Assembly: GCA_964016885.1 (NCBI GenBank)
Contig: OZ024741.1
Span: 281,666,001 to 281,730,000 of the forward strand
Reading direction: 5' to 3'
Length of the DNA: 64,000 nt
DNA from: Eledone cirrhosa
Taxonomy: Eukaryota
A model generated the notes under the pieces. That model was not told the origin of the DNA, did not search any database, and saw nothing but the letters and a program-made list of their open reading frames with translations. Position 1 is the first letter of the stretch; every line of letters begins with the position of its first letter. Positions 13,825 to 56,244 of this stretch are shown here, in pieces. A program made the position numbers and the translations under genes.

Positions 13825-13825
13825 A

Positions 13826-14285: not shown

Positions 14286-14419
14286 ATATATTTCTTTATT
14301 AGATAGATATATTTCTGAGAAAATAGTATATATATAAGAATCCAGATTACTGGAGAGAAGATTTTTTTATGGGTATGGCATTTTATATATTTATAGAAGA
14401 AAAATGTGAAGATTAGTGC

Positions 14420-15059: not shown

Positions 15060-15608
15060 AACAGATATATTTAACCAGATATATCTCCAATACTGTCTAG
15101 ATTTAACCAGACATATCTCTGATACTGACCAGATTTACCCAGATATATAGCAAAAAAGCACCCAGCCCACACTGTAAAGTGGACATGCAGGCGCCACGGA
15201 AAAAAGGCACCCAGCACTGACGGTAAGTGGGGTTGGTGATAGGAAGGGCATCCAGCTGTAGAAATCAAACCAGATTCAGTTGCCGTATGAGCAAGACAAG
15301 GTCAGCCGACCGGACACTGCCCACAACAGGACAACCTGTCTAACCCATGCTAGCGTAGAAGAACGGATATAAAATGGTGATGATGATGATGATGATGATG
15401 ATCTCTGACACTGACCAGATTTAACCAGACATATCCCTGATACTAACCAGATTTAATCAGACATACTGACCAGATTTAACCAGACATATCTCCAATACTG
15501 ACCAAATTTAACCAGATATGTCATATCTCTGATACTAACCAGATTTAACCAGACATCTCTGACACTGACCAGATATATCGCTGACACTGACCAGATTTAA
15601 CCAGACAC
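15060..15608. repeat. Degenerate minisatellite of about 32 bp (CCAGATTTAACCAGACATATCTCTGATACTGA) split by an RTE 3' fragment
   Basis: Units visible at 15060-15148 and 15402-15608. Confidence 0.8.
15149..15402 (+). mobile_element. RTE LINE 3' UTR fragment with (GAT)n tail
   Basis: Closely matches 10408-10660. Confidence 0.9.
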
Positions 15609-15986
15609 ATAATATACATGAAGCAGATGAGATAAATAATTATAGAATTTAGTTCAGTGGTTGATGTGTAATATTTCATGAGAGATTAGAAAAAACCCTC
15701 ACTGCAGCCACCATCACCAAAATAAAATAAAGATTTCATATTTTGTACAAATGCCATGTACTGATAGAAATTTAAAATTAGTCTTAAAAAATTAAAAATT
15801 GTGAAAATAAAAAAAAACACACTTTACTAAAACTATTTAAATAGAAACCTGTCTATTACATACTAATTTGAAACACCTTGTGGTTTGTTTGCATTACAAA
15901 CTGACAAGAGACACCACTAAAATGACATCAATAATTAATTATTCCTGGAGATAAAAACATTGAAAAGTGTCAGCTTTATATGGCAA

Positions 15987-18900
15987 TCAAGGTAACATTA
16001 TATACATCAGAGTACTAATGTTGTTTACTTCATCATCAGCACTGATCAGAGCACTAATGTTGTTTACTTCATCATCAGCACTGATCAGAGCACTAATGTT
16101 GTTTACTTCATCATCAGCACTGATCAGAGTACTAATGTTGTTTACTTCATCATCAGCACTGATCAGAGTACTAGTGTTGTTTACTTCAACACTGATCAGA
16201 GTACTAGTGTTGTTTACTTCAACACTGTTCAGAGCACTAGTGTTGTTTACTTCAACACTGATCAGAGCACTAGTGTTGTTTACTTCATCATCAGCACTGA
16301 TCAGAGTACTAGTGTTGTTTACTTCAACATCAGCACTGATCAAAGCACTAGTGTTGTTTACTTCAACATCAGCACTGATCAGAGCACTAGTGTTGTTTAC
16401 TTCAACATCAGCACTGATCAGAGCACTAGTGTTGTTTACTTCAACATCAGCACTGATCAGAGCACTAGTGTTGTTTACTTCAACATCAGCACTGATCAGA
16501 GCACTAGTGTTGTTTACTTCAACACTGATCAAAGCACTAGTGTTGTTTACTTCAACATCAGCACTGATCAAAGCACTAGTGTTGTTTACTTCAACATCAG
16601 CACTGATCAGAGCACTAGTGTTGTTTACTTCAACATCAGCACTGATCAGAGCACTAGTGTTGTTTACTTCAACATCAGCACTGATCAGAGCACTAGTGTT
16701 GTTTACTTCAACACTGATCAAAGCACTAGTGTTGTTTACTTCAACATCAGCACTGATCAGAGTACTAGTGTTGTTTACTTCAACATCAGCACTGATCAGA
16801 GCACTAGTGTTGTTTACTTCAACATCAGCACTGATCAGAGCACTAGTGTTGTTTACTTCAACACTGATCAAAGCACTAGTGTTGTTTACTTCAACATCAG
16901 CACTGATCAAAGCACTAGTGTTGTTTACTTCAACACTGATCAAAGCACTAGTGTTGTTTACTTCAACATCAGCACTGATCAGAGCACTAGTGTTGTTTAC
17001 TTCAACACTGATCAGAGCACTAGTGTTGTTTACTTCAACATCAGCACTGATCAGAGTACTAGTGTTGTTTACTTCAACACTGATCAGAGCACTAGTGTTG
17101 TTTACTTCAACATTGATCAGAGCACTAGTGTTGTTTACTTCAACACTGATCAGAGTACTAGTGTTGTTTACTTCAACATCAGCACTGATCAAAGAACTAG
17201 TGTTGTTTACTTCAACATCAGCACTGATCAGAGCACTAGTGTTGTTTACTTCAACACTGATCAGAGTACTAGTGTTGTTTACTTCAACATCAGCACTGAT
17301 CAGAGTACTAGTGTTGTTTACTTCAACATCAGCACTGATCAGAGCACTAGTGTTGTTTACTTCAACATCAGCACTGATCAGAGCACTAGTGTTGTTTACT
17401 TCAACACTGATCAAAGCACTAGTGTTGTTTACTTCAACACTGATCAAAGCACTAGTGTTGTTTACTTCAACACTGATCAAAGCACTAGTGTTGTTTACTT
17501 CAACACTGATCAAAGCACTAGTGTTGTTTACTTCAACACTGATCAGAGCACTAGTGTTGTTTACTTCAACATTGATCAGAGCACTAGTGTTGTTTACTTC
17601 AACACTGATCAGAGTACTAGTGTTGTTTACTTCAACATCAGCACTGATCAGAGCACTAGTGTTGTTTACTTCATCATCAGCACTGATCAGAGTACTAGTG
17701 TTGTTTACTTCATCATCAACACTGATCAGAGTATTAGTGTTGTTTACTTCAACATCAGCACTGATCAGAGTACTAGTGTTGTTTACTTCAACACTGATCA
17801 GAGTACTAGTGTTGTTTACTTCATCATCAGCACTGATCAGAGTATTAGTGTTGTTTACTTCAACATCAGCACTGATCAGAGCACTAGTGTTGTTTACTTC
17901 AACACTGATCAGAGTACTAGTGTTGTTTACTTCATCATCAACACTGATCAGAGCACTAGTGTTGTTTACTTCAACACTGATCAGAGCACTAGTGTTGTTT
18001 ACTTCAACATCAGCACTGATCAGAGCACTAGTGTTGTTTACTTCAACATCAACACTGATCAGAGTACTAGTGTTGTTTACTTCAACATCAGCACTGATCA
18101 GAGCACTAGTGTTGTTTACTTCAACATCAGCACTGATCAGAGTACTAGTGTTGTTTACTTCAACATCAGCACTGATCAGAGCACTAGTGTTGTTTACTTC
18201 AACATCAGCACTGATCAGAGTACTAGTGTTGTTTACTTCAACATCAGCACTGATCAGAGTATTAGTGTTGTTTACTTCAACATCAGCACTGATCAGAGTA
18301 TTAGTGTTGTTTACTTCAACATCAGCACTGATCAGAGCACTAGTGTTGTTTACTTCAACATCAACACTGATCAGAGCACTAGTGTTGTTTACTTCAACAT
18401 CAGCACTGATCAGAGCACTAGTGTTGTTTACTTCAACATCAACACTGATCAGAGTACTAGTGTTGTTTACTTCAACATCAGCACTGATCAGAGCACTAGT
18501 GTTGTTTACTTCAACATCAGCACTGATCAGAGTACTAGTGTTGTTTACTTCAACATCAGCACTGATCAGAGCACTAGTGTTGTTTACTTCAACATCAGCA
18601 CTGATCAGAGCATTAGTGTTGTTTACTTCAACATCAGCACTGATCAGAGCACTAGTGTTGTTTACTTCAACATCAACACTGATCAGAGTACTAGTGTTGT
18701 TTACTTCAACATCAGCACTGATCAGAGCACTAGTGTTGTTTACTTCAACATCAGCACTGATCAGAGTACTAGTGTTGTTTACTTCAACATCAGCACTGAT
18801 CAGAGTACTAGTGTTGTTTACTTCAACATCAGCACTGATCAGAGTATTAGTGTTGTTTACTTCAACATCAGCACTGATCAGAGTACTAGTGTTGTTTACT

Positions 18901-21900
18901 TCAACACTGATCAGAGTACTAGTGTTGTTTACTTCATCATCAGCACTGATCAGAGTATTAGTGTTGTTTACTTCAACACTGATCAGAGTACTAGTGTTGT
19001 TTACTTCATCATCAACACTGATCAGAGCACTAGTGTTGTTTACTTCAACATCAGCACTGATCAGAGCACTAGTGTTGTTTACTTCAACACTGATCAGAGT
19101 ACTAGTGTTGTTTACTTCAACATCAGCACTGATCAGAGCACTAGTGTTGTTTACTTCAACATCAACACTGATCAGAGTATTAGTGTTGTTTACTTCAACA
19201 TCAGCACTGATCAGAGTACTAGTGTTGTTTACTTCAACATCAGCACTGATCAGAGTACTAGTGTTGTTTACTTCATCATCAGCACTGATCAGAGTATTAG
19301 TGTTGTTTACTTCAACATCAGCACTGATCAGAGTACTAGTGTTGTTTACTTCATCATCAGCACTGATCAGAGTATTAGTGTTGTTTACTTCAACACTGAT
19401 CAGAGTACTAGTGTTGTTTACTTCATCATCAACACTGATCAGAGCACTAGTGTTGTTTACTTCAACATCAGCACTGATCAGAGCACTAGTGTTGTTTACT
19501 TCAACACTGATCAGAGTACTAGTGTTGTTTACTTCAACATCAGCACTGATCAGAGCACTAGTGTTGTTTACTTCAACATCAGCACTGATCAGAGCACTAG
19601 TGTTGTTTACTTCATCATCAACACTGATCAGAGCACTAGTGTTGTTTACTTCAACATCAGCCCTGATCAGAGTACTAGTGTTGTTTACTTCAACACTGAT
19701 CAGAGTACTAGTGTTGTTTACTTCAACATCAGCACTGATCAGAGTACTAGTGTTGTTTACTTCAACATCAGCACTGATCAGAGTACTAGTGTTGTTTACT
19801 TCAACATCAGCACTGATCAGAGTATTAGTGTTGTTTACTTCAACACTGATCAGAGTACTAGTGTTGTTTACTTCATCATCAGCACTGATCAGAGTATTAG
19901 TGTTGTTTACTTCAACATCAGCACTGATCAGAGTACTAGTGTTGTTTACTTCATCATCAGCACTGATCAGAGTATTAGTGTTGTTTACTTCATCATCAGC
20001 ACTGATCAGAGTACTAGTGTTGTTTACTTCAACACTGATCAGAGTACTAGTGTTGTTTACTTCATCATCAGCACTGATCAGAGTATTAGTGTTGTTTACT
20101 TCAACATCAGCACTGATCAGAGTACTAGTGTTGTTTACTTCAACACTGATCAGAGTACTAGTGTTGTTTACTTCAACATCAGCACTGATCAGAGTACTAG
20201 TGTTGTTTACTTCAACATCAGCACTGATCAGAGTACTAGTGTTGTTTACTTCAACATCAGCACTGATCAGAGTACTAGTGTTGTTTACTTCAACATCAGC
20301 ACTGATCAGAGTATTAGTGTTGTTTACTTCAACACTGATCAGAGTACTAGTGTTGTTTACTTCATCATCAGCACTGATCAGAGTATTAGTGTTGTTTACT
20401 TCAACATCAGCACTGATCAGAGTACTAGTGTTGTTTACTTCATCATCAGCACTGATCAGAGTATTAGTGTTGTTTACTTCATCATCAGCACTGATCAGAG
20501 TATTAGTGTTGTTTACTTCAACATCAGCACTGATCAGAGCACTAGTGTTGTTTACTTCAACATCAGCACTGATCAGAGTACTAGCGTTGTTTACTTCAAC
20601 ACTGATCAGAGCACTAGTGTTGTTTACTTCAACATCAGCACTGATCAAAGCACTAGCGTTGTTTACTTCAACATCAGCACTGATCAGAGTACTAGCGTTG
20701 TTTACTTCAACACTGATCAGAGTACTAGTGCTGTTTACTTCAACACTGATCAGAGTACTAGTGTTGTTTACTTCAACACTGATCAGAGCACTAGTGTTGT
20801 TTACTTCAACATCAGCACTGATCAGAGCACTAGTGTTGTTTACTTCAACATCAGCACTGATCAGAGCACTAGTGTTGTTTACTTCAACATCAGCACTGAT
20901 CAGAGTACTAGTGTTGTTTACTTCAACATCAGCACTGATCAGAGTACTAGTGTTGTTTACTTCAACATCAGCACTGATCAGAGTACTAGCGTTGTTTACT
21001 TCAACACTGATCAGAGCACTAGTGTTGTTTACTTCAACATCAGCACTGATCAGAGTACTAGTGTTGTTTACTTCAGCACTGATCAGAGCACTAGTGTTGT
21101 TTACTTCAACATCAGCACTGATCAGAGTACTAGTGTTGTTTACTTCAACATCAGCACTGATCAGAGTACTAGTGTTGTTTACTTCAGCACTGATCAGAGT
21201 ACTAGTGTTGTTTACTTCAACATCAGCACTGATCAGAGTACTAGTGTTGTTTACTTCAGCACTGATCAGAGCACTAGTGTTGTTTACTTCATCATCAGCA
21301 CTGATCAGAGTACTAGTGTTGTTTACTTCAACATCAGCACTGATCAGAGTACTAGTGTTGTTTACTTCAACATCAGCACTGATCAGAGTACTAGTGTTGT
21401 TTACTTCATCATCAGCACTGTTCAGAGCACTAGTGTTGTTTACTTCAACATCAGCACTGATCAGAGTACTAGTGTTGTTTACTTCAACACTGATCAAAGC
21501 ACTAGTGTTGTTTACTTCAACATCAGCACTGATCAGAGCACTAGTGTTGTTTACTTCAACACTGATCAAAGCACTAGTGTTGTTTACTTCAACATCAGCA
21601 CTGATCAGAGTACTAGTGTTGTTTACTTCAACATCAGCACTGATCAGAGTACTAGTGTTGTTTACTTCAACACTGATCAGAGCACTAGTGTTGTTTACTT
21701 CAACATCAGCACTGATCAGAGCACTAGTGTTGTTTACTTCAACACTGATCAGAGCACTAGTGTTGTTTACTTCAACATCAGCACTGATCGGAGCACTAGT
21801 GTTGTTTACTTCAACACTGATCAGAGTACTAGTGTTGTTTACTTCAACATCAGCACTGATCAGAGTACTAGTGTTGTTTACTTCAACATCAGCACTGATC

Positions 21901-48900: not shown

Positions 48901-51900
48901 GTACTAGTGTTGTTTACTTCAACATCAGCACTGATCAGAGCACTAGTGTTGTTTACTTCATCATCAGCACTGATCAGAGTACTAGTGTTGTTTACTTCAT
49001 CATCAGCACTGATCAGAGTACTAGTGTTGTTTACTTCAACATCAGCACTGATCAGAGTACTAGTGTTGTTTACTTCAACACTGATCAGAGTACTAGTGTT
49101 GTTTACTTCATCATCAGCACTGATCAGAGTACTAGTGTTGTTTACTTCAACATCAGCACTGATCAGAGCACTAGTGTTGTTTACTTCAACATCAGCACTG
49201 ATCAGAGTACTAGTGTTGTTTACTTCATCATCAGCACTGATCAGAGTACTAGTGTTGTTTACTTCAACATCAGCACTGATCAGAGCACTAGTGTTGTTTA
49301 CTTCAACATCAGCACTGATCAGAGTACTAGTGTTGTTTACTTCAACATCAGCACTGATCAGAGCACTAGTGTTGTTTACTTCATCATCAGCACTGATCAG
49401 AGTACTAGTGTTGTTTACTTCAACATCAGCACTGATCAGAGTACTAGTGTTGTTTACTTCATCATCAGCACTGATCAGAGTACTAGTGTTGTTTACTTCA
49501 ACACTGTTCAGAGCACTAGTGTTGTTTACTTCAACACTGTTCAGAGCACTAGTGTTGTTTACTTCAACACTGATCAGAGCACTAGTGTTGTTTACTTCAA
49601 CATCAGCACTGATCAGAGCACTAGTGTTGTTTACTTCAACATCAGCACTGATCAGAGCACTAGTGTTGTTTACTTCATCATCAGCACTGATCAGAGTACT
49701 AGCGTTGTTTACTTCAACATCAGCACTGATCAGAGTACTAGTGTTGTTTACTTCATCATCAGCACTGATCAGAGCACTAGTGTTGTTTACTTCAACATCA
49801 GCACTGATCAGAGTACTAGTGTTGTTTACTTCAACACTGATCAGAGCACTAGTGTTGTTTACTTCAACATCAGCACTGATCAGAGTACTAGTGTTGTTTA
49901 CTTCATCATCAGCACTGATCAGAGTACTAGCGTTGTTTACTTCAACATCAGCACTGATCAGAGCACTAGTGTTGTTTACTTCAACACTGATCAGAGTACT
50001 AGTGTTGTTTACTTCAACATCAGCACTGATCAGAGCACTAGTGTTGTTTACTTCATCATCAGCACTGATCAGAGTACTAGTGTTGTTTACTTCAACATCA
50101 GCACTGATCAGAGCACTAGTGTTGTTTACTTCAACACTGATCAGAGCACTAGTGTTGTTTACTTCATCATCAGCATTGATCAGAGCACTAGTGTTGTTTA
50201 CTTCAACACTGTTCAGAGTACTAGCGTTGTTTACTTCAACATCAGCACTGATCAGAGTACTAGTGTTGTTTACTTCAACATCAGCATTGATCAGAGCACT
50301 AGTGTTGTTTACTTCAACACTGTTCAGAGTACTAGCGTTGTTTACTTCAACATCAGCACTGATCAGAGTACTAGTGTTGTTTACTTCAACATCAGCACTG
50401 ATCAGAGCACTAGTGTTGTTTACTTCAACATCAGCATTGATCAGAGCACTAGTGTTGTTTACTTCAACACTGTTCAGAGTACTAGCGTTGTTTACTTCAT
50501 CATCAGCACTGATCAGAGCACTAGTGTTGTTTACTTCAACACTGTTCAGAGTACTAGCGTTGTTTACTTCATCATCAGCACTGATCAGAGCACTAGTGTT
50601 GTTTACTTCAACACTGTTCAGAGTACTAGCGTTGTTTACTTCATCATCAGCACTGATCAGAGTACTAGCGTTGTTTACTTCATCATCAGCACTGATCAGA
50701 GCACTAGTGTTGTTTACTTCAACACTGTTCAGAGTACTAGTGTTGTTTACTTCAACATCAGCACTGATCAGAGTACTAGTGTTGTTTACTTCAACATCAG
50801 CACTGATCAGAGTACTAGTGTTGTTTACTTCAACATCAGCACTGATCAGAGTACTAGTGTTGTTTACTTCAACATCAGCACTGATCAGAGCACTAGTGTT
50901 GTTTACTTCAACACTGTTCAGAGTACTAGCGTTGTTTACTTCATCATCAGCACTGATCAGAGTACTAGTGTTGTTTACTTCAACATCAGCACTGATCAGA
51001 GCACTAGTGTTGTTTACTTCAACATCAGCACTGATCAGAGTACTAGTGTTGTTTACTTCAACACTGATCAGAGTACTAGCGTTGTTTACTTCATCATCAG
51101 CACTAATCAGAGTACTAGTGTTGTTTACTTCAACATCAGCACTGATCAGAGTACTAGTGTTGTTTACTTCAACACTGATCAGAGTACTAGCGTTGTTTAC
51201 TTCATCATCAGCACTGATCAGAGTACTAGCGTTGTTTACTTCATCATCAGCACTGATCAGAGCACTAGTGTTGTTTACTTCAACACTGTTCAGAGTACTA
51301 GCGTTGTTTACTTCATCATCAACACTGATCAGAGCACTAGTGTTGTTTACTTCATCATCAGCACTGATCAGAGCACTAGTGTTGTTTACTTCAACACTGT
51401 TCAGAGTACTAGTGTTGTTTACTTCAGCACTGATCAGAGTACTAGTGTTGTTTACTTCAACATCAGCACTGATCAGAGTACTAGTGTTGTTTACTTCAAC
51501 ATCAGCACTGATCAGAGTACTAGTGTTGTTTACTTCAACATCAGCACTGATCAGAGTACTAGTGTTGTTTACTTCAACATCAGCACTGATCAGAGTACTA
51601 GTGTTGTTTACTTCAACATCAGCACTGATCAGAGTACTAGTGTTGTTTACTTCAACATCAGCACTGATCAGAGTACTAGTGTTGTTTACTTCAACACTGA
51701 TCAGAGCACTAGTGTTGTTTACTTCAACACTGATCAGAGCACTAGTGTTGTTTACTTCAACACTGATCAGAGCACTAGTGTTGTTTACTTCAACACTGTT
51801 CAGAGTACTAGTGTTGTTTACTTCAACACTGTTCAGAGTACTAGTGTTGTTTACTTCAACACTGTTCAGAGTACTAGTGTTGTTTACTTCATCATCAGCA

Positions 51901-54900
51901 CTGATCAGAGCACTAGTGTTGTTTACTTCAACATCAGCACTGATCAGAGCACTAGTGTTGTTTACTTCAACATCAGCACTGATCAAAGCACTAGCGTTGT
52001 TTACTTCATCATCAGCACTGATCAGAGCACTAGTGTTGTTTACTTCAACACTGTTCAGAGCACTAGTGTTGTTTACTTCAACACTGTTCAGAGCACTAGT
52101 GTTGTTTACTTCAACATCAGCACTGATCAGAGTACTAGTGTTGTTTACTTCAACATCAGCACTGATCAGAGCACTAGTGTTGTTTACTTCATCATCAGCA
52201 CTGATCAGAGCACTAGTGTTGTTTACTTCATCATCAGCACTGATCAGAGCACTAGTGTTGTTTACTTCAACATCAGCACTGATCAGAGCACTAGTGTTGT
52301 TTACTTCAACATCAGCACTGATCAGAGTACTAGTGTTGTTTACTTCATCATCAGCACTGATCAGAGCACTAGTGTTGTTTACTTCAACATCAGCACTGAT
52401 CAAAGCACTAGCGTTGTTTACTTCAACATCAGCACTGATCAGAGTACTAGTGTTGTTTACTTCAACATCAGCACTGATCAGAGTACTAGTGTTGTTTACT
52501 TCAACATCAGCACTGATCAGAGCACTAGTGTTGTTTACTTCAACATCAGCACTGATCAGAGCACTAGTGTTGTTTACTTCATCATCAGCATTGATCAGAC
52601 CACTAGTGTTGTTTACTTCAACACTGTTCAGAGTACTAGTGTTGTTTACTTCAACACTGATCAGAGTACTAATGTTGTTTACTTCAACATCAGCACTGAT
52701 CAGAGTACTAGTGTTGTTTACTTCAACACTGATCAGAGTACTAGTGTTGTTTACTTCAACATCAGCACTGATCAGAGCACTAGTGTTGTTTACTTCAACA
52801 TCAGCACTGATCAGAGTACTAGTGTTGTTTACTTCAACATCAGCACTGATCAGAGTACTAGTGTTGTTTACTTCAACATCAGCACTGATCAGAGTACTAG
52901 TGTTGTTTACTTCAACACTGATCAGAGTACTAGTGTTGTTTACTTCAACATCAGCACTGATCAGAGTACTAGTGTTGTTTACTTCAACATCAGCACTGAT
53001 CAGAGCACTAGTGTTGTTTACTTCAACATCAGCACTGATCAGAGTACTAGTGTTGTTTACTTCAACACTGATCAGAGTACTAGTGTTGTTTACTTCAACA
53101 TCAGCACTGATCAGAGTACTAGTGTTGTTTACTTCAACACTGATCAGAGTACTAGTGTTGTTTACTTCAACATCAGCACTGATCAGAGCACTAGTGTTGT
53201 TTACTTCAACATCAGCACTGATCAGAGTACTAGTGTTGTTTACTTCAACACTGATCAGAGTACTAGTGTTGTTTACTTCAACATCAGCACTGATCAGAGT
53301 ACTAGTGTTGTTTACTTCAACATCAGCACTGATCAGAGTACTAGTGTTGTTTACTTCAACATCAGCACTGATCAGAGTACTAGTGTTGTTTACTTCAACA
53401 CTGATCAGAGTACTAGTGTTGTTTACTTCAACATCAGCACTGATCAGAGTACTAGTGTTGTTTACTTCAACATCAGCACTGATCAGAGCACTAGTGTTGT
53501 TTACTTCAACATCAGCACTGATCAGAGTACTAGTGTTGTTTACTTCAACACTGATCAGAGTACTAGTGTTGTTTACTTCAACATCAGCACTGATCAGAGT
53601 ACTAGTGTTGTTTACTTCAACATCAGCACTGATCAGAGTACTAGTGTTGTTTACTTCAACATCAGCACTGATCAGAGTACTAGTGTTGTTTACTTCAACA
53701 TCAGCACTGATCAGAGCACTAGTGTTGTTTACTTCAACATCAGCACTGATCAGAGTACTAGTGTTGTTTACTTCAACACTGATCAGAGTACTAGTGTTGT
53801 TTACTTCAACATCAGCACTGATCAGAGTACTAGTGTTGTTTACTTCAACATCAGCACTGATCAGAGTACTAGTGTTGTTTACTTCAACACTGATCAGAGT
53901 ACTAGTGTTGTTTACTTCAACATCAGCACTGATCAGAGCACTAGTGTTGTTTACTTCATCATCAGCACTGATCAGAGTACTAGTGTTGTTTACTTCAACA
54001 TCAGCACTGATCAGAGTACTAGTGTTGTTTACTTCAACACTGATCAGAGTACTAGTGTTGTTTACTTCAACATCAGCACTGATCAGAGTACTAGTGTTGT
54101 TTACTTCAACATCAGCACTGATCAGAGTACTAGTGTTGTTTACTTCAACACTGATCAGAGTACTAGTGTTGTTTACTTCAACATCAGCACTGATCAGAGC
54201 ACTAGTGTTGTTTACTTCATCATCAGCACTGATCAGAGTACTAGTGTTGTTTACTTCAACATCAGCACTGATCAGAGTACTAGTGTTGTTTACTTCAACA
54301 TCAGCACTGATCAGAGCACTAGTGTTGTTTACTTCATCATCAGCACTGATCAGAGTACTAGTGTTGTTTACTTCATCATCAGCACTGATCAGAGTACTAG
54401 TGTTGTTTACTTCAACATCAGCACTGATCAGAGTACTAGTGTTGTTTACTTCAACACTGATCAGAGTACTAGTGTTGTTTACTTCATCATCAGCACTGAT
54501 CAGAGTACTAGTGTTGTTTACTTCAACATCAGCACTGATCAGAGCACTAGTGTTGTTTACTTCAACATCAGCACTGATCAGAGTACTAGTGTTGTTTACT
54601 TCAACATCAGCACTGATCAGAGTACTAGTGTTGTTTACTTCATCATCAGCACTGATCAGAGTACTAGTGTTGTTTACTTCAACATCAGCACTGATCAGAG
54701 CACTAGTGTTGTTTACTTCAACATCAGCACTGATCAGAGTACTAGTGTTGTTTACTTCAACATCAGCACTGATCAGAGCACTAGTGTTGTTTACTTCATC
54801 ATCAGCACTGATCAGAGTACTAGTGTTGTTTACTTCAACATCAGCACTGATCAGAGTACTAGTGTTGTTTACTTCATCATCAGCACTGATCAGAGTACTA

Positions 54901-55202
54901 GTGTTGTTTACTTCAACACTGTTCAGAGCACTAGTGTTGTTTACTTCAACACTGTTCAGAGCACTAGTGTTGTTTACTTCAACACTGTTCAGAGCACTAG
55001 TGTTGTTTACTTCAACACTGTTCAGAGCACTAGTGTTGTTTACTTCAACACTGTTCAGAGCACTAGTGTTGTTTACTTCAACACTGTTCAGAGCACTAGT
55101 GTTGTTTACTTCAACACTGATCAGAGCACTAGTGTTGTTTACTTCAACACTGTTCAGAGCACTAGTGTTGTATACTTCAACATCAACACTGTTCAAGCAG
55201 AC
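15987..55202 (-). CDS. Hypothetical giant repetitive acidic, N-glycosylation-sequon-rich polypeptide ((AD)VEVNNTS(A/T)LIS)n; coding status unproven
   Basis: Uninterrupted frame of about 13,070 codons. No ATG start or signal peptide, so it could only be a spliced exon. The frame opens right after ...AATCATAG| at 55203. May be a by-product of a stop-free 3n unit. Confidence 0.2.
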   Translation of the reverse strand, partial: VCLNSVDVEVYNTSALNSVEVNNTSALISVEVNNTSALNSVEVNNTSALNSVEVNNTSALNSVEVNNTSALNSVEVNNTSALNSVEVNNTSALNSVEVNNTSTLISADDEVNNTSTLISADVEVNNTSTLISADDEVNNTSALISADVEVNNTSTLISADVEVNNTSALISADVEVNNTSTLISADDEVNNTSTLISADVEVNNTSTLISADVEVNNTSALISADVEVNNTSTLISADDEVNNTSTLISVEVNNTSTLISADVEVNNTSTLISADDEVNNTSTLISADDEVNNTSALISADVEVNNTSTLISADVEVNNTSTLISADDEVNNTSALISADVEVNNTSTLISVEVNNTSTLISADVEVNNTSTLISADVEVNNTSTLISVEVNNTSTLISADVEVNNTSTLISADDEVNNTSALISADVEVNNTSTLISVEVNNTSTLISADVEVNNTSTLISADVEVNNTSTLISVEVNNTSTLISADVEVNNTSALISADVEVNNTSTLISADVEVNNTSTLISADVEVNNTSTLISADVEVNNTSTLISVEVNNTSTLISADVEVNNTSALISADVEVNNTSTLISADVEVNNTSTLISVEVNNTSTLISADVEVNNTSTLISADVEVNNTSTLISADVEVNNTSTLISVEVNNTSTLISADVEVNNTSALISADVEVNNTSTLISVEVNNTSTLISADVEVNNTSTLISVEVNNTSTLISADVEVNNTSALISADVEVNNTSTLISADVEVNNTSTLISVEVNNTSTLISADVEVNNTSTLISADVEVNNTSTLISADVEVNNTSALISADVEVNNTSTLISVEVNNTSTLISADVEVNNISTLISVEVNNTSTLNSVEVNNTSGLINADDEVNNTSALISADVEVNNTSALISADVEVNNTSTLISADVEVNNTSTLISADVEVNNASALISADVEVNNTSALISADDEVNNTSTLISADVEVNNTSALISADVEVNNTSALISADDEVNNTSALISADDEVNNTSALISADVEVNNTSTLISADVEVNNTSALNSVEVNNTSALNSVEVNNTSALISADDEVNNASALISADVEVNNTSALISADVEVNNTSALISADDEVNNTSTLNSVEVNNTSTLNSVEVNNTSTLNSVEVNNTSALISVEVNNTSALISVEVNNTSALISVEVNNTSTLISADVEVNNTSTLISADVEVNNTSTLISADVEVNNTSTLISADVEVNNTSTLISADVEVNNTSTLISADVEVNNTSTLISAEVNNTSTLNSVEVNNTSALISADDEVNNTSALISVDDEVNNASTLNSVEVNNTSALISADDEVNNASTLISADDEVNNASTLISVEVNNTSTLISADVEVNNTSTLISADDEVNNASTLISVEVNNTSTLISADVEVNNTSALISADVEVNNTSTLISADDEVNNASTLNSVEVNNTSALISADVEVNNTSTLISADVEVNNTSTLISADVEVNNTSTLISADVEVNNTSTLNSVEVNNTSALISADDEVNNASTLISADDEVNNASTLNSVEVNNTSALISADDEVNNASTLNSVEVNNTSALISADDEVNNASTLNSVEVNNTSALINADVEVNNTSALISADVEVNNTSTLISADVEVNNASTLNSVEVNNTSALINADVEVNNTSTLISADVEVNNASTLNSVEVNNTSALINADDEVNNTSALISVEVNNTSALISADVEVNNTSTLISADDEVNNTSALISADVEVNNTSTLISVEVNNTSALISADVEVNNASTLISADDEVNNTSTLISADVEVNNTSALISVEVNNTSTLISADVEVNNTSALISADDEVNNTSTLISADVEVNNASTLISADDEVNNTSALISADVEVNNTSALISADVEVNNTSALISVEVNNTSALNSVEVNNTSALNSVEVNNTSTLISADDEVNNTSTLISADVEVNNTSTLISADDEVNNTSALISADVEVNNTSTLISADVEVNNTSALISADVEVNNTSTLISADDEVNNTSTLISADVEVNNTSALISADVEVNNTSTLISADDEVNNTSTLISVEVNNTSTLISADVEVNNTSTLISADDEVNNTSTLISADDEVNNTSALISADVEVNNTSTLISADVEVNNTSTLISADDEVNNTSALISADVEVNNTSTLISVEVNNTSTLISADVEVNNTSTLISADVEVNNTSTLISVEVNNTSTLISADVEVNNTSTLISADDEVNNTSALISADVEVNNTSTLISVEVNNTSTLISADVEVNNTSTLISADVEVNNTSTLISADVEVNNTSTLISVEVNNTSTLSSADVEVNNTSALISADVEVNNTSTLISADVEVNNTSTLISADVEVNNTSTLISADVEVNNTSTLISVEVNNTSTLISADVEVNNTSALISADVEVNNTSTLISADVEVNNTSTLISVEVNNTSTLISADVEVNNTSTLISADVEVNNTSTLISADVEVNNTSTLISVEVNNTSTLISADVEVNNTSALISADVEVNNTSTLISVEVNNTSTLISADVEVNNISTLISVEVNNTSTLNSVEVNNTSGLINADDEVNNTSALISADVEVNNTSALISADVEVNNTSTLISADVEVNNTSTLISADVEVNNASALISADVEVNNTSALISADDEVNNTSTLISADVEVNNTSALISADVEVNNTSALISADDEVNNTSALISADDEVNNTSALISADVEVNNTSTLISADVEVNNTSALNSVEVNNTSALNSVEVNNTSALISADDEVNNASALISADVEVNNTSALISADVEVNNTSALISADDEVNNTSTLNSVEVNNTSTLNSVEVNNTSTLNSVEVNNTSALISVEVNNTSALISVEVNNTSALISVEVNNTSTLISADVEVNNTSTLISADVEVNNTSTLISADVEVNNTSTLISADVEVNNTSTLISADVEVNNTSTLISADVEVNNTSTLISAEVNNTSTLNSVEVNNTSALISADDEVNNTSALISVDDEVNNASTLNSVEVNNTSALISADDEVNNASTLISADDEVNNASTLISVEVNNTSTLISADVEVNNTSTLISADDEVNNASTLISVEVNNTSTLISADVEVNNTSALISADVEVNNTSTLISADDEVNNASTLNSVEVNNTSALISADVEVNNTSTLISADVEVNNTSTLISADVEVNNTSTLISADVEVNNTSTLNSVEVNNTSALISADDEVNNASTLISADDEVNNASTLNSVEVNNTSALISADDEVNNASTLNSVEVNNTSALISADDEVNNASTLNSVEVNNTSALINADVEVNNTSALISADVEVNNTSTLISADVEVNNASTLNSVEVNNTSALINADVEVNNTSTLISADVEVNNASTLNSVEVNNTSALINADDEVNKTSALISVEVNNTSALISADVEVNNTSTLISADDEVNNTSALISADVEVNNTSTLISVEVNNTSALISADVEVNNASTLISADDEVNNTSTLISADVEVNNTSALISVEVNNTSTLISADVEVNNTSALISADDEVNNTSTLISADVEVNNASTLISADDEVNNTSALISADVEVNNTSALISADVEVNNTSALISADVEVNNTSALISADVEVNNTSALISADDEVNNTSTLISVEVNNTSALNSVEVNNTSALNSVEVNNTSALISVEVNNTSALNSVEVNNTSALNSVEVNNTSALNSVEVNNTSALNSVEVNNTSALNSVEVNNTSALNSVEVNNTSTLISADDEVNNTSTLISADVEVNNTSTLISADDEVNNTSALISADVEVNNTSTLISADVEVNNTSALISADVEVNNTSTLISADDEVNNTSTLISADVEVNNTSTLISADVEVNNTSALISADVEVNNTSTLISADDEVNNTSTLISVEVNNTSTLISADVEVNNTSTLISADDEVNNTSTLISADDEVNNTSALISADVEVNNTSTLISADVEVNNTSTLISADDEVNNTSALISADVEVNNTSTLISVEVNNTSTLISADVEVNNTSTLISADVEVNNTSTLISVEVNNTSTLISADVEVNNTSTLISADDEVNNTSALISADVEVNNTSTLISVEVNNTSTLISADVEVNNTSTLISADVEVNNTSTLISADVEVNNTSTLISVEVNNTSTLISADVEVNNTSALISADVEVNNTSTLISADVEVNNTSTLISADVEVNNTSTLISADVEVNNTSTLISVEVNNTSTLISADVEVNNTSALISADVEVNNTSTLISADVEVNNTSTLISVEVNNTSTLISADVEVNNTSTLISADVEVNNTSTLISADVEVNNTSTLISVEVNNTSTLISADVEVNNTSALISADVEVNNTSTLISVEVNNTSTLISADVEVNNTSTLISVEVNNTSTLNSVEVNNTSGLINADDEVNNTSALISADVEVNNTSALISADVEVNNTSTLISADVEVNNTSTLISADVEVNNASALISADVEVNNTSALISADDEVNNTSTLISADVEVNNTSALISADVEVNNTSALISADDEVNNTSALISADDEVNNTSALISADVEVNNTSTLISADVEVNNTSALNSVEVNNTSALNSVEVNNTSALISADDEVNNASALISADVEVNNTSALISADVEVNNTSALISADDEVNNTSTLNSVEVNNTSTLNSVEVNNTSTLNSVEVNNTSALISVEVNNTSALISVEVNNTSALISVEVNNTSTLISADVEVNNTSTLISADVEVNNTSTLISADVEVNNTSTLISADVEVNNTSTLISADVEVNNTSTLISADVEVNNTSTLNSVEVNNTSALISADDEVNNTSALISVDDEVNNASTLNSVEVNNTSALISADDEVNNASTLISADDEVNNASTLISVEVNNTSTLISADVEVNNTSTLISADDEVNNASTLISVEVNNTSTLISADVEVNNTSALISADVEVNNTSTLISADDEVNNASTLNSVEVNNTSALISADVEVNNTSTLISADVEVNNTSTLISADVEVNNTSTLISADVEVNNTSTLNSVEVNNTSALISADDEVNNASTLISADDEVNNASTLNSVEVNNTSALISADDEVNNASTLNSVELNNTSALISADDEVNNASTLNSVEVNNTSALINADVEVNNTSALISADVEVNNTSTLISADVEVNNASTLNSVEVNNTSALINADVEVNNTSTLISADVEVNNASTLNSVEVNNTSALINADDEVNNTSALISVEVNNTSALISADVEVNNTSTLISADDEVNNTSALISADVEVNNTSTLISVEVNNTSALISADVEVNNASTLISADDEVNNTSTLISADVEVNNTSALISVEVNNTSTLISADVEVNNTSALISADDEVNNTSTLISADVEVNNASTLISADDEVNNTSALISADVEVNNTSALISADVEVNNTSALISADVEVNNTSALISADVEVNNTSALISADVEVNNTSALISADVEVNNTSALISVEVNNTSTLISADVEVNNTSALISADDEVNNTSTLISADVEVNNASTLISADDEVNNTSALISADVEVNNTSALISADVEVNNTSALISADVEVNNTSALISADDEVNNTSALISVEVNNTSALISADVEVNNTSTLISADVEVNNTSTLISADDEVNNTSTLISADDEVNNTSALISADVEVNNTSALISADVEVNNTSTLISVEVNNTSTLISADVEVNNTSALISVEVNNTSALISVEVNNTSALISADVEVNNTSTLISADDEVNNTSALISGDVEVNNTSALISVEVNNTSTLISADVEVNNTSALISVEVNNTSTLISADDEVNNTSALISADVEVNNTSTLISADVEVNNTSALISVEVNNTSTLISADVEVNNTSTLISADDEVNNTSALISADVEVNNTSTLISADVEVNNTSALISVEVNNTSTLISADVEVNNTSTLISADDEVNNTSTLISADVEVNNTSALNSVEVNNTSTLISADVEVNNTSTLISADDEVNNTSALNSVEVNNTSTLNSVEVNNTSTLISADVEVNNTSALNSVEVNKTSTLISADVEVNNTSTLISADDEVNNTSALNSVEVNNTSTLNSVEVNNTSTLISADVEVNNTSTLISVEVNNTSALISADDEVNNTSTLISADVEVNNTSTLISADDEVNNTSTLISADVEVNNTSTLISADVEVNNTSALISVEVNNTSTLISADVEVNNTSTLISADVEVNNTSALISVEVNNTSTLISADVEVNNTSALISVEVNNTSTLISADVEVNNTSALISADVEVNNTSTLISADDEVNNTSALISVEVNNTSALISADVEVNNTSTLISADDEVNNTSTLISVEVNNTSALISVEVNNTSTLISVEVNNTSALISADVEVNNTSALISADVEVNNTSALISADVEVNNTSTLISADVEVNNTSALISVEVNNTSTLISADVEVNNTSTLISADVEVNNTSTLISADVEVNNTSTLISADVEVNNTSTLISADVEVNNTSTLISVEVNNTSALISVEVNNTSALISVEVNNTSTLISVEVNNTSALISVEVNNTSTLISVEVNNTSTLISVEVNNTSALISVEVNNTSALISVEVNNASTLISADVEVNNTSTLISVEVNNTSTLISADVEVNNTSALISADVEVNNTSTLISADVEVNNTSALISVEVNNTSALISADVEVHNTSALISADVEVNNTSALISVEVNNTSALISADVEVNNTSALISADVEVNNTSALISADVEVNNTSALISADVEVNNTSALISADVEVNNTSALISADVEVNNTSALISADVEVNNTSALISADVEVNNTSALISADVEVNNTSALISVEVNNTSALISADVEVNNTSALISADVEVNNTSALISADVEVNNTSTLISADVEVNNTSALISADVEVNNTSTLISADVEVNNTSALISVEVNNTSTLISADVEVNNTSTLISADVEVNNTSTLISADVEVNNTSALISVEVNNTSTLISADVEVNNTSTLISADVEVNNTSALISVEVNNTSTLISADDEVNNTSTLISADVEVNNTSTLISADVEVNNTSALISVEVNNTSTLISADVEVNNTSTLISADVEVNNTSALISVEVNNTSTLISADVEVNNTSALISVEVNNTSTLISADVEVNNTSALISADVEVNNTSALISADVEVNNTSALISADVEVNNTSALISADVEVNNTSALISADVEVNNTSALISADVEVNNTSALISADVEVNNTSALISADVEVNNTSALISADVEVNNTSALISADVEVNNTSALISADVEVNNTSALISADVEVNNTSALISADVEVNNTSALISADVEVNNTSALISADVEVNNTSALISADVEVNNTSALISADVEVNNTSALISADVEVNNTSALISADVEVNNTSALISADVEVNNTSALISADVEVNNTSALISADVEVNNTSALISADVEVNNTSALISADVEVNNTSALISADVEVNNTSALISADVEVNNTSALISADVEVNNTSALISVEVNNTSALISVEVNNTSALISADVEVNNTSTLISVEVNNTSTLISVEVNNTSTLISVEVNNTSTLISVEVNNTSTLISADVEVNNTSALISADVEVNNTSTLISADVEVNNTSALISVEVNNTSTLISADDEVNNTSALNSVEVNNTSTLNSVEVNNTSTLISADVEVNNTSTLISVEVNNTSALISADDEVNNTSTLISADVEVNNTSTLISADDEVNNTSTLISADVEVNNTSTLISADVEVNNTSALISVEVNNTSTLISADVEVNNTSTLISADVEVNNTSALISVEVNNTSTLISADVEVNNTSALISVEVNNTSTLISADVEVNNTSALISVEVNNTSTLISADVEVNNTSTLISADDEVNNTSALISVEVNNTSALISADVEVNNTSTLISADDEVNNTSALISVEVNNTSTLISVEVNNTSALISADVEVNNTSALISVEVNNTSALISADVEVNNTSTLISADVEVNNTSALISVEVNNTSTLISADVEVNNTSTLISADVEVNNTSTLISADVEVNNTSTLISADVEVNNTSTLISADVEVNNTSTLISVEVNNTSALISVEVNNTSALISVEVNNTSTLISVEVNNTSALISVEVNNTSTLISVEVNNTSTLISVEVNNTSALISVEVNNTSALISVEVNNASTLISADVEVNNTSTLISVEVNNTSTLISADVEVNNTSALISADVEVNNTSTLISADVEVNNTSALISVEVNNTSALISADVEVNNTSALISADVEVNNTSALISVEVNNTSALISADVEVNNTSALISADVEVNNTSALISADVEVNNTSALISADVEVKNTSALISADVEVNNTSALISADVEVNNTSALISADVEVNNTSALISADVEVNNTSTLISADVEVNNTSALISADVEVNNTSALISADVEVNNTSALISADVEVNNTSTLISADVEVNNTSALISADVEVNNTSTLISADVEGNNTSALISVEVNNTSTLISADVEVNNTSALISVEVNNTSTLISADDEVNNTSTLISADVEVNNTSTLISADVEVNNTSALISVEVNNTSTLISADVEVNNTSTLISADVEVNNTSALISVEVNNTSTLISADVEVNNTSALISVEVNNTSTLISADVEVNNTSALISADVEVNNTSALISADVEVNNTSALISADVEVNNTSALISADVEVNNTSALISADVEVNNTSALISADVEVNNTSALISADVEVNNTSALISADVEVNNTSALISADVEVNNTSALISADVEVNNTSALISADVEVNNTSALISADVEVNNTSALISADVEVNNTSALISADVEVNNTSALISADVEVNNTSALISADVEVNNTSALISADVEVNNTSALISADVEVNNTSALISADVEVNNTSALISADVEVNNTSALISVEVNNTSALISVEVNNTSALISADVEVNNTSTLISADVEVNNTSALISADVEVNNTSTLISADVEVNNTSALISVEVNNTSTLISADVEVNNTSALISVEVNNTSTLISADDEVNNTSTLISADVEVNNTSTLISADVEVNNTSALISVEVNNTSTLISADVEVNNTSALISVEVNNTSTLISADVEVNNTSTLISVEVEVNNTSALISVEVNNTSALISVEVNNTSTLISADVEVNNTSTLISADVEVNNTSALISADVEVNNTSTLISADVEVNNTSALISVEVNNTSTLISADVEVNNTSTLISVEVEVNNTSALISVEVNNTSALISVEVNNTSTLISADVEVNNTSTLISADVEVNNTSALISADVEVNNTSTLISADVEVNNTSALISVEVNNTSTLISADVEVNNTSTLISVEVEVNNTSALISVEVNNTSALISVEVNNTSTLISADVEVNNTSTLISADVEVNNTSALISADVEVNNTSTLISADVEVNNTSALISVEVNNTSTLISADVEVNNTSALISVEVNNTSTLISADDEVNNTSTLISADVEVNNTSTLISADVEVNNTSALISVEVNNTSTLISADVEVNNTSALISVEVNNTSTLISADVEVNNTSTLISADVEVNNTSALISVEVNNTSALISVEVNNTSTLISADVEVNNTSTLISVEVNNTSTLNSVEVNNTSALNSIEVNNTSTLNSVEVNNTSALISADDEVNNTSALISVEVNNTSTLISADVEVNNTSALISVEVNNTSTLFSADVEVNNTSALISADVEVNNTSTLISADVEVNNTSTLISADVEVNNTSALISVEVNNTSALISVEVNNTSALISVEVNNTSALNSVEVNNTSTLNSVEVNNTSALISVEVNNTSALISVEVNNTSALISVEVNNTSALISVEVNNTSALNSVEVNNTSALISADDEVNNTSTLNSVEVNNTSALNSVEVNNTSALISVEVNNTSTLISADDEVNNTSALISVEVNNTSALISADDEVNNTSALISVEVNNTSALISADDEVNNTSALNSVEVNNTSALISADDEVNNTSALISADDEVNNTSALISVEVNNTSTLNSVEVNNTSTLISADVEVNNTSALISADDEVNNTSALISVEVNNTSTLISADVEVNNTSALISVEVNNTSTLISADVEVNNTSALISVEVNNTSTLISADVEVNNTSTLISADVEVNNTSTLISVEVNNTSTLISADVEVNNTSTLISADVEVNNTSALISADVEVNNTSALISVEVNNTSTLISVEVNNTSTLISADVEVNNTSTLISADVEVNNTSTLISADVEVNNTSTLISADVEVNNTSTLISADVEVNNTSTLISADVEVNNTSTLISVEVNNTSTLISADVEVNNTSTLISADVEVNNTSALNSVEVNNTSALISVEVNNTSTLISADVEVNNTSTLISADVEVNNTSTLISADVEVNNTSTLISADVEVNNTSTLISADVEVNNTSTLISADVEVNNTSALISVDDEVNNTSTLISADVEVNNTSALISADVEVNNTSTLISVEVNNTSALISADVEVNNTSTLISVEVNNTSALISADVEVNNTSTLISADVEVNNTSALISADDEVNNTSTLISADVEVNNTSALISADVEVNNTSALNSVDVEVNNTSALISVEVNNTSALISVEVNNTSALISVEVNNTSTLISVEVNNTSALISVEVNNTSTLISVEVNNTSTLISVEVNNTSTLISVEVNNTSALNSIEVNNTSTLISADVEVNNTSALISADVEVNNTSTLISADVEVNNTSALISADVEVNNTSALNSVDVEVNNTSALISVEVNNTSALISVEVNNTSALISVEVNNASTLISADVEVNNTSALISADVEVNNTSALISADVEVNNTSTLISADDEVNNTSALISVEVNNTSSLISVEVNNTSTLISVEVNNTSALISVEVNNTSTLISVEVNNTSTLISVEVNNTSTLISVEVNNTSALISVEVNNTSTLISVEVNNTSTLISVEVNNTSALISADVEVNNTSTLISADVEVNNTSTLISADDEVNNTSALISADVEVNNTSTLISADVEVNNTSALISADVEVNNTSALISVEVNNTSTLISADVEVNNTSTLNSVEVNNTSALISADVEVNNTSALISVEVNNTSALISADVEVNNTSALISVEVNNTSTLISVDVEVNNTSTLISADVEVNNTSTLISADVEVNNTSALISADVEVNNTSALISADVEVNNTSTLISADVEVNNTSTLISVEVNNTSALISADVEVNNTSTLISAEVNNTSAPISADVEVNNTSALISVEVNNTSALISADVEVNNTSTLISADVEVNNTSALISADVEVNNTSALISADVEVNNTSTLISADVEVNNTSTLISVEVNNTSAPISADVEVNNTSALISVEVNNTSALISADVEVNNTSALISVEVNNTSTLISADVEVNNTSTLISADVEVNNTSALISVEVNNTSALISADVEVNNTSALISVEVNNTSTLISADVEVNNTSALNSADDEVNNTSTLISADVEVNNTSTLISADVEVNNTSTLISADDEVNNTSALISAEVNNTSTLISADVEVNNTSTLISAEVNNTSTLISADVEVNNTSTLISADVEVNNTSALISAEVNNTSTLISADVEVNNTSALISVEVNNASTLISADVEVNNTSTLISADVEVNNTSTLISADVEVNNTSALISADVEVNNTSALISADVEVNNTSALISVEVNNTSTLISVEVNSTSTLISVEVNNASTLISADVEVNNASALISADVEVNNTSALISVEVNNASTLISADVEVNNTSALISADVEVNNTNTLISADDEVNNTNTLISADDEVNNTSTLISADVEVNNTNTLISADDEVNNTSTLISVEVNNTNTLISADVEVNNTSTLISADVEVNNTSTLISADVEVNNTSTLISADVEVNNTSTLISVEVNNTSTLISADVEVNNTNTLISADDEVNNTSTLISVEVNNTSTLISADDEVNNTNTLISADDEVNNTSTLISADVEVNNTNTLISADDEVNNTSTLISVEVNNTNTLISADVEVNNTSTLISADVEVNNTSTLISADVEVNNTSTLISVEVNNTSTLIRADVEVNNTSALISVDDEVNNTSALISADVEVNNTSALISADVEVNNTSTLISVEVNNTSALISADVEVNNTSALISVDDEVNNTSTLISVEVNNTNTLISADDEVNNTSTLISADVEVNNTNTLISADDEVNNTSTLISADVEVNNTSTLISADVEVNNTNTLISVDVEVNNTSALISADVEVNNTSTLISVEVNNTSALISADVEVNNTSALISVDDEVNNTSTLISVEVNNTNTLISADDEVNNTSTLISVEVNNTSTLISADVEVNNTNTLISADVEVNNTSTLISADVEVNNTSTLISADVEVNNTSALISADVEVNNTSTLISVDVEVNNTSALISADVEVNNTNALISADVEVNNTSALISADVEVNNTSTLISADVEVNNTSALISADVEVNNTSTLISVDVEVNNTSALISADVEVNNTSALISVDVEVNNTSALISADVEVNNTNTLISADVEVNNTNTLISADVEVNNTSTLISADVEVNNTSALISADVEVNNTSTLISADVEVNNTSALISADVEVNNTSTLISVDVEVNNTSALISADVEVNNTSALISVEVNNTSALISVDDEVNNTSTLISVEVNNTSALISADVEVNNTNTLISADDEVNNTSTLISVEVNNTSTLISADVEVNNTNTLISVDDEVNNTSTLISADDEVNNTSALISADVEVNNTSTLISVEVNNTSALINVEVNNTSALISVEVNNTSALISVEVNNTSALISVEVNNTSALISVEVNNTSALISVEVNNTSALISADVEVNNTSALISADVEVNNTSTLISADVEVNNTSTLISVEVNNTSALISADVEVNNTSSLISADVEVNNTSTLISVEVNNTSALINVEVNNTSALISVEVNNTSTLISADVEVNNTSALISVEVNNTSALISADVEVNNTSALISVEVNNTSALISADVEVNNTSALISVEVNNTSALISADVEVNNTSALISADVEVNNTSTLISADVEVNNTSALISVEVNNTSALISADVEVNNTSALISADVEVNNTSALISADVEVNNTSALISADVEVNNTSALISVEVNNTSALISADVEVNNTSALISADVEVNNTSALISADVEVNNTSALISADVEVNNTSALISADVEVNNTSTLISADDEVNNTSALISVEVNNTSALNSVEVNNTSTLISVEVNNTSTLISADDEVNNISTLISADDEVNNISALISADDEVNNISALISADDEVNNISTLMYIMLP
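16006..55195. repeat. 39.2-kb tandem array of interspersed 33-bp and 39-bp units (roughly 1,050 units)
   Basis: Unit CTGATCAGAGYACTAGTGTTGTTTACTTCAACA (33 bp) with or without TCAGCA (39 bp). Very homogeneous, sharp boundaries, no inserted elements and no frameshift. Unit count is estimated from length. Confidence 0.99.
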
Positions 55203-55454
55203 CTATGATTTAAGGCAGTCAAGTCATAACAATTTTCAGAAATAGTATACCTTTAACCAGGCCCCGATTTTGACATTGTGGGGCTCAGGATAGTTGAGGT
55301 TTGATGAGCCCCTCATATAACAACACACACAGACACACATAGATATGTGTGTGTATGTATGTATATACATAAGCAAGCAAGAATAGGGAGAGATAGAGAA
55401 AGAAGGGGCCCCAATAAATCTAGCCCTGTGTTTAACTGCATCATCCAATGAGAT

Positions 55455-55792
55455 GGCGCCTTAATAAAATGCACCTAGTACCTCCTGTAAAGTGTTAATG
55501 TTGGTACCATGATAAGATGCACGCAGTCTGTTCTTTAAAGTGGTAGTATTGGTGTCACAAAAAACACACTTGTGCTGGTGTTATAAGAAACGCACACATT
55601 TTGGTGCCATAAAAAAGTGAACCCAGCATACTTTATAAAGTGATTGGTGTTAAAAAAGGCATCCAACCATTGAGACCATACTAAATATGGAATGTAATAA
55701 GCAAGATAGGTTGCTCTAGCTCATTTGGTCACAGACTGTGACAACATATCCAACCCATGCAAGTGAGGAAAGGGAACATATGATGATGATGT
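55455..55792 (+). mobile_element. Diverged RTE 3' UTR-like element with internal tandem subrepeats
   Basis: AAAAAAGTGAACCCAGCATACTTTATAAAGTGATTGGTGTTAAAAAAGGCATCCAACC...CAACCCATGCAAG..GGAA..(GAT)n. Confidence 0.65.
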
Positions 55793-55959
55793 GGTTGATG
55801 GAGATTTTGCAGTGATTTCTAGAAAGTTGAATGCCCATGTAAAAATACTGTTGTATAGGGAGGTCATTCTGTTATGATCAATATTTCACCCTTTTGTTAC
55901 TATATTTCTGATGAAATAGTCTATTATTTTCAATTAACTTTCATAAAGTTATGTTGATA

Positions 55960-56244
55960 CCACAACATCCAGTCCAAACTAATGAGATTGTGTAGGTGTC
56001 ACGACAAAAAAACAGAGTTCACGCTGTAATGTGGTCGTGTAGGTAACATGGTAAAAAGCTCCCAGTCCACACTGTAAATGTGGTTGGTGTTAAGAAGGGC
56101 ATCCAGCCATAGAAAACCTGCCAGATTGTCCTATACAAGCGAGATTCGGTCACCCGACCAATCTTGCCTCAAGTGGGACAACTCCCATCTAACCCATGCT
56201 AGTATGGAAGATAGACGTTAAACGATTATGATGATGATGATGAT
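55960..56244 (+). mobile_element. RTE 3' UTR fragment nested in a TTAA-family MITE (about 55888-56425)
   Basis: CCCAGTCCACACTGTAAA..GGTTGGTGTTAAGAAGGGCATCCAGC...AACCCATGCTAGTATGGAAGATAGACGTTAAACG(ATG)n. Confidence 0.8.

Follow-up and report, generated by a model that had tools for sequence, protein, structure and literature searches.

The window analysed here, a 64,000-nucleotide stretch of the genome of the cephalopod Eledone cirrhosa (assembly GCA_964016885.1, contig OZ024741.1, positions 281,666,001 to 281,730,000 of the forward strand), contains a 39-kb tandem array whose repeat units leave giant open reading frames (ORFs) on both strands (Table 1). We read this array, with a probability of roughly 0.87, as a young non-coding minisatellite, or variable number tandem repeat (VNTR), occupying a single locus within what is predicted to be intron 1 of neuralized, its giant frames being incidental. 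These frames likely stay open because the unit length is divisible by three and the array is too young to have collected stops or frameshifts. The original prediction had left two options, namely a very young non-coding minisatellite or one giant exon of a repetitive structural or secreted protein. The former is supported by tests of chance, selection and splice sites together with the position inside neuralized; the latter found no backing in the form of a start, a leader recognizable by inspection, a usable splice site, a synonymous excess or a homologue.

Tandem Repeats Finder reported a single array with a period of 39 at window positions 16006-55195. Cut along its minus-strand frame, the array shows 1,056 unit starts; the complete units number 1,055, with 722 of them 39 bp and 333 of them 33 bp long; as anticipated, there is no third length and the two always differ by 6 bp. 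The 33-bp variant, the sole length variant, is the 39-bp unit shortened by 6 bp within a series of 6-bp near-repeats. Altogether, the units comprise 55 distinct sequences with 31 substitution types, 15 of them singletons, across 39,216 bp; the copies differ very little from one another. All bases from the first to the last unit start were assigned to units, such that no foreign insert is present, while 46-47% of the flanks consists of interspersed repeats (26 segments in 13.3 kb and 13 in 8.8 kb); this bears out the contrast between 39 kb free of transposable elements (TEs) and TE-rich surroundings. A 31-base pattern from the array matched the 3.0-Gb assembly 829 times, with all 829 matches falling inside the window, which makes it a single locus in the assembly. 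In the 664 kb formed by the window and the 300 kb on either side that were read for genes, it is the largest array, the next of the 18 others listed measuring 5.6 kb. With head-to-tail units in the range of ~10-100 bp at one locus, it classifies as a minisatellite or VNTR.

The genomic setting emerged from a scan for exons, which uncovered exons coding for NHR domains on the minus strand downstream of the array. The product of the NHR1 exon is 99% identical to the Octopus bimaculoides neuralized protein XP_014768780.1 and matches Pfam PF07177 (E-value 1e-43); neuralized is an E3 ligase of the Notch pathway. The 12 Octopus neuralized proteins listed display three kinds of first exon. Two of these alternatives (69% and 85% identity) follow the array on the minus strand, preceding the NHR1 exon by 20 and 40 kb. 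The third, a short exon beginning with Met-Gly, has its sole location at C2:281898066, which precedes the array by 177 kb; here 11 of 12 residues match (E-value 0.003 within the 664 kb). Hence, in the neuralized orthologue (G000:C2:281898066-281431000) only the distal one of the three first exons spans the array. The donor of this distal exon and the acceptor of the NHR1 exon are both of phase 1 and hence compatible, placing the array, by sequence comparison, between exons that are joined in known Octopus isoforms and have fitting phases. The predicted intron measures 406,007 bp and is interrupted at window offsets +92.6 and +201.4 kb by two scaffold gaps of 200 N each. Between the NHR1 exon and offset +92.6 kb, a span that includes the array, the sequence is gap-free and lacks the distal exon 1, so the array would be intronic for the distal isoform whatever the sizes of the gaps. 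The repeat is carried by none of the 12 Octopus proteins, and in the 664 kb no flanking domain exon other than those of neuralized was detected on the minus strand. Within 100 kb of the array the recognizable long non-tandem ORFs, among those listed, are transposon-like by eye.

Several further observations concern this gene and its surroundings. The Octopus isoforms P0081, P0086, P0087 and P0089 feature an optional insert of 10-12 residues that resembles a translated abundant dispersed repeat and is possibly an exonised short interspersed nuclear element (SINE). A search for the Octopus optional exon 'FGTRPA' at the locus matched only dispersed repeat copies and was discarded. The next upstream gene, also on the minus strand (exons L078:2231-5569, L076 and L075), shows a weak vinculin-family match with an E-value of 0.007, below the cut-off.

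The open frames are what the unit would be expected to yield. The 39-bp unit is stop-free in three of its six frames, and among 20,000 mononucleotide and 20,000 dinucleotide shuffles of it, 71% and 60%, respectively, had an open frame on both strands, with 44% and 33% having three or more open frames. The caution that few substitutions could place a stop in the minus frame proved sound, in that just 1 of the 117 single changes of the commonest unit does so. The probability of remaining stop-free after 31 neutral substitution types is 0.80 for the minus, 0.26 for the plus and 0.45 for the third frame, and the chance of at least two of the three staying open is 0.50 when they are treated as independent. 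We sought a synonymous excess in all three frames over the 31 types and found none, in a test of low power: the minus frame has 5 synonymous types against 26 that are non-synonymous (P = 0.92 for at least 5; 25% expected to be synonymous), the plus ORF 10 against 21 (33% expected; P = 0.58) and the third frame 6 against 24, with 1 stop (21% expected; P = 0.68). As a control for indels, we used eight arrays with complex units, excluding low-complexity arrays with 20-, 22-, 44- and 66-bp units. In the eight, 5 classes of non-triplet indel accompany 118 substitution types; at that rate, 1.3 such classes would be expected in the 39-kb array, with a probability of 0.27 for none. Nearby arrays of non-triplet period have roughly as few indels. 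The array is unusual locally in its size and unsurprising in its open frames.

As to the frames themselves, the overlapping ORFs of about 13,000 codons claimed for both strands, uninterrupted by frameshifts, were recovered with 13,071 codons on the minus and 13,093 on the plus strand. Both of the frames described as stop-free were confirmed, and the count has to be extended by a further plus-strand frame that is open but for one TAA. The minus product is repetitive and acidic as described (isoelectric point 4.05, with 4 Lys or Arg residues), but it is not hydrophilic (grand average of hydropathy, GRAVY, +0.13). It contains 2,029 N-x-S/T sequons, two per unit; Ser and Thr make up 28% of it and Pro 3 of its 13,071 residues, a composition that is not Pro/Thr/Ser-rich. 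Only ~10 residues at either end are unique. No Met occurs before residue 13,066, and thus translation of this frame would require splicing. The plus product is strongly hydrophobic (GRAVY 1.58 over 13,093 residues).

Homologues of the minus product were sought in two word-based searches, with 8,000 candidates scored in each (sequence lengths of 220-702 and 271-2,000 amino acids), and none was found at an E-value of 0.001; a springtail neurotactin match in one of them (E-value 0.05) was rejected. A phmmer search of 1.84 billion representatives gave 184 hits at an E-value of 0.001. The ten that were checked, from elm, frog, hydrozoan, fish, nematode, abalone and yak along with three unnamed records, are all unrelated repeats of matching period, with none from a named cephalopod; the abalone match is a mucin-12-like protein with 32% identity. 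Repeats that evolve fast or lack annotation may escape searches of this kind. Pfam searches with 400-residue pieces of the three frames left zero significant stretches, the candidates being rejected as repeat artefacts. The ESM Atlas returned a best score of 0.87 with a recognition of 720, a lead at most. A literature search retrieved nothing on intronic minisatellites of cephalopods or on such a giant ORF.

Could one of the frames nonetheless be translated? The minus ORF might be the 39-kb coding exon of a gene nested in neuralized on the same strand, joined for instance to the ATG-bearing stretch at 57063-57043 through the phase-0 acceptor at 55202, born from a minisatellite and specifying a 1.35-MDa acidic protein with ~2,000 sequons. 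Its 13,071 open codons and triplet units of both lengths agree with this proposal, as do the two sequons per unit, which are rare in shuffles (0.6-0.8%), the opening of the ORF immediately after an AG, and a single-copy stretch 1.8 kb upstream that offers an in-phase ATG and a GTGAGT donor. However, the acceptor at 55202 scores 0.4 on the same matrix that gives 5.8 and 8.3 to the real neuralized acceptors (and 5.6, 4.6 and 6.9 to the donors); the leader, by eye, is without a hydrophobic core, so that the sequons would go unused; there is no unique N- or C-terminal domain beyond the ~10 terminal residues; the synonymous excess is absent; the nearest AATAAA lies 1.5 kb past the stop; and the two word-based searches produced no homologue from a collection that includes Octopus proteins. 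We regard such a nested gene as highly improbable. Hardly credible at all is the proposal that the array is a cassette exon of neuralized, or that the plus ORF is an intronless gene. While the minus ORF is sense to neuralized and Met codons occur at residues 19-58 of the plus ORF, a cassette would have to be of phase 1, and the best phase-1 sites inside the minus ORF score -3.0 (acceptor) and -0.1 (donor), with none above the latter value. Further, joining exon 1 to the acceptor at 55202 leads into a frame with a stop, and the plus product is strongly hydrophobic and shows no Pfam match.

Two alternatives concern the array as non-coding DNA. Its length was gauged from depth in the contigs of three runs from one sample, which behave like long-read DNA and are possibly the assembly's own source; contig depth is a rough measure and not a copy number. 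Array 31-mers on seven contig pieces have a depth of 2.7-3.6 per assembled copy, and pooled over the three runs the array reaches 9.3 against 22.6 for the right flank and 31.2 for the left junction. The resulting array-to-flank ratio is 0.30-0.41, where two equal alleles would give 1 and one long allele with one absent 0.5. These depths fit a short second allele, an overlong assembly or an under-read satellite, and not two 39-kb alleles. It is rather unlikely, if compatible with a non-coding minisatellite, that the 39 kb is mostly an assembly product of joined alleles or duplicated blocks and the true array far shorter: the ratio would be explained, but contigs span both array junctions, and their depths of >1,700 imply that hundreds of array copies exist. 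Moreover, the three 5-kb blocks described below each possess private differences, amounting to more versions than two haplotypes would give. A very unlikely alternative is that the array is non-coding yet selected, as a length-variable block of pre-mRNA tuning transcription time, splicing or double-stranded RNA editing. Such a block would be transcribed with the distal isoform only, and a slowing of polymerase by intronic repeats has been proposed for giant genes (PMC11207136); a 300-nt fold of the unit array also appeared stable against plain shuffles (z -2.72). Against this, the array is very young by appearance and has many arrays like it in its surroundings, and when tandem arrays of shuffled units served as the control, 8.7% of 300 folded equally well, upon which a special RNA structure was dropped.

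Returning to the non-coding minisatellite, a set of points weighs against it. Its placement in an intron is drawn from homology rather than RNA, and exon 1 is separated from the array by both 200-N gaps, rendering the 406 kb nominal. The splice scores come from a hand-made approximate matrix that was not trained on Eledone cirrhosa. The two main unit lengths are each divisible by three, and the minus ORF is on the sense strand of the host gene. An open frame with two overlapping sequons per unit arose in only 0.6-0.8% of shuffles, the two-sequon feature having been chosen after it was seen. With just 31 substitution types the selection test is weak, and amino-acid replacements could be tolerated in a spacer of mucin type. 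Finally, the four low-complexity arrays that were excluded from the indel control are richer in indels and their inclusion would lower the probability of finding none; thus, our choice of controls favours the non-coding reading.

The internal structure of the array hints at how such a minisatellite may have grown. In pairwise comparisons, the three copies of its larger higher-order block have 127-128 identical unit types, 4-5 mismatches and 4-14 gap positions, while the two copies of a second block share 96 identical unit types, with 10 mismatched and 28 gap positions; the duplicated blocks measure 4-5 kb, and each block copy carries private differences. Growth would have proceeded by slippage of single units, followed by unequal crossing-over or gene conversion. 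Shared variants and block duplications are the pattern expected of unequal exchange on top of slippage, and it is from this pattern that we infer the process. The singleton density (15 over 39.2 kb, compared with 7 over 4.0 kb of a neighbouring array with 74-bp units) suggests that the 39-kb array was homogenised more recently than its neighbour, which is likely also the reason for its freedom from transposons. An origin from a local transposon or flank was rejected, as no match exceeded 17 bases in the 664 kb. In the cell, the array would be transcribed in the minus sense from the distal neuralized promoter only and spliced out with the intron, possibly in a segment ending at the recursive-splice-like site at 13054 (see below). 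Judging by read depth, the two chromosomes would carry alleles of strongly different length, or the array would be overlong as assembled.

Other arrays invite comparison. A one-mismatch search recovered an 8.5-kb array (G000:C1:386990843-386999334) whose core agrees with that of the 39-kb array at 16 of 18 bases. Most of its 280 pieces are 31 or 29 bp long, and it has no insert and no ORF >90 amino acids. It thus has a like architecture without the triplet period or the ORFs; the two may be kin, based on the 18-base core, for which a chance likeness is possible. The 74-bp array, which served among the controls, extends over window positions 1-2733 and L020 with 54 copies, a 97% match and no indels, and by eye resembles a derivative of a SINE-like head. 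A 2.1-kb array (G000:C2:281587256-281589433), built chiefly from 24- and 18-bp units, has all three minus frames open; it was considered as a mucin exon (a Thr/Pro/Ser frame of 726 codons) and rejected given the TAA that precedes the frame.

The intron harbours another class of features that is possibly of more interest than the array. Three sites combine a strong acceptor with an abutting GTAAGT donor, in the manner of ratchet points, at window offsets +114751, +13054 and -75327 (C2:281780751, 281679054 and 281590673). All three are sense to neuralized, with none antisense and none in the 258 kb outside the intron; 0.08 per strand would be expected. They divide the intron into segments of 117, 102, 88 and 99 kb, the first two of which include gaps, and second donors follow 51, 57 and 34 nt downstream, the 57 nt being at 13054. 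A fourth, weaker acceptor-donor site inside a repeat fell below the threshold. Two of the three sites are homologous to each other (75-78%), and hence only two are independent. Genome-wide, the strict ratchet motif occurs 14 times, several duplicates included; a one-base control occurs 4 times and a reversed control 12 times. The sites at 13054 and C2:281590673 were also considered as ends of signal-peptide exons, an idea dropped for their simple T-richness. At the level of motif, these sites are candidates for recursive splicing in a cephalopod. The literature search found no paper on recursive splicing in octopus, and no cephalopod featured in the related papers among the matches listed. In PMC8605326, Drosophila ratchet points in long introns likewise pair an acceptor with an abutting donor, and another donor follows ~50 nt on; the Drosophila RS-exons described there are cryptic and ~50 nt long, whereas the Eledone sites are known from the motif in the host intron.

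The same intron also contains a 22.5-kb block of degenerate TA repeats (G000:C2:281861189-281883706) that holds one of the scaffold gaps. Inside the window, a perfect 66-bp inverted repeat (13282-13347 and 13512-13577) and a second long inverted-repeat element recognized by eye (60900-61300) are both probably similar to miniature inverted-repeat transposable elements (MITEs).

Table 1. Positions of the array, its frames and associated features in the window (window coordinates unless prefixed).
Feature	Position	Strand	Remarks
Predicted neuralized first intron	1..64000	-	Window wholly inside; predicted exon 1 G000:C2:281898066-281898033; NHR1 exon from C2:281492025 downward
Minisatellite array	16006..55195	none	39-bp units (722) and 33-bp units (333); 31 types of substitution
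Higher-order block, three tandem copies	39120..54914		134-144 units, ~5.0-5.4 kb each
Higher-order block, two more diverged copies	28503..37436		116-124 units
Minus ORF, stop to stop	15987..55202	-	13,071 codons; (AD)VEVNNTS(T/A)LIS repeat; same strand as neuralized
Plus ORF, stop to stop	15964..55245	+	13,093 codons; Met at residue 19; antisense to neuralized
Third frame	15996..55208	+	Codon-for-codon antisense of minus ORF; single TAA at 40170-40172
Acceptor candidate at start of minus ORF	55202..55218	-	Only phase-0 candidate there; score 0.4
Exon-like stretch, single-copy in genome	57043..57164	-	ATG at 57063; phase-0 GTGAGT donor; only start route noticed
Exon-like stretch, 46 nt	58025-58070	-	Decent splice sites; upstream of array
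Strong acceptor	15944	-	43 nt after stop of minus ORF
Recursive-splice-like site	12998..13103	-	Polypyrimidine-CAG then GTAAGT at 13054; sense to neuralized; 2.9 kb 3' of array

As a non-coding VNTR the array is ordinary, though unusually long. Satellites of triplet length yield giant ORFs on both strands without selection, and annotation pipelines may call genes in them. Through the array, the pre-mRNA of a single neuralized isoform may also be polymorphic in length by tens of kb. The three evenly spaced sense-strand sites offer a direct test case for recursive splicing in a cephalopod and have more reach than the array.

The nearest known class is that of single-locus minisatellites or VNTRs with interspersed variant units. 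The Eledone array shares with them the head-to-tail units of 33-39 bp at one locus, the few shared variants and the block duplications, and its read depth would fit variation in allele length as well as an excess in the assembly; it differs in a length of 39 kb, at or above their usual long end, and in the three stop-free frames per unit. Among coding systems, the spider gene AgSp1 has a coding sequence of 42,270 bp in two exons of similar size (PMC6553539), and with the Pro/Thr/Ser exons of mucins it has in common with the array kilobases of in-frame tandem repeat. AgSp1 is endowed with a conserved N-terminal domain and RNA support, whereas the minus ORF is without a start, a terminal domain or a strong splice site; were it nevertheless an exon, its 39 kb would be nearly twice either AgSp1 exon. 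The giant introns of Drosophila kl-3, kl-5 and dystrophin, as presented in PMC11207136, likewise carry tandem repeats in a very long intron; in Eledone, by comparison, there is one 39-kb block of complex units in a TE-rich intron of nominally 406 kb, the transcription of which is predicted.

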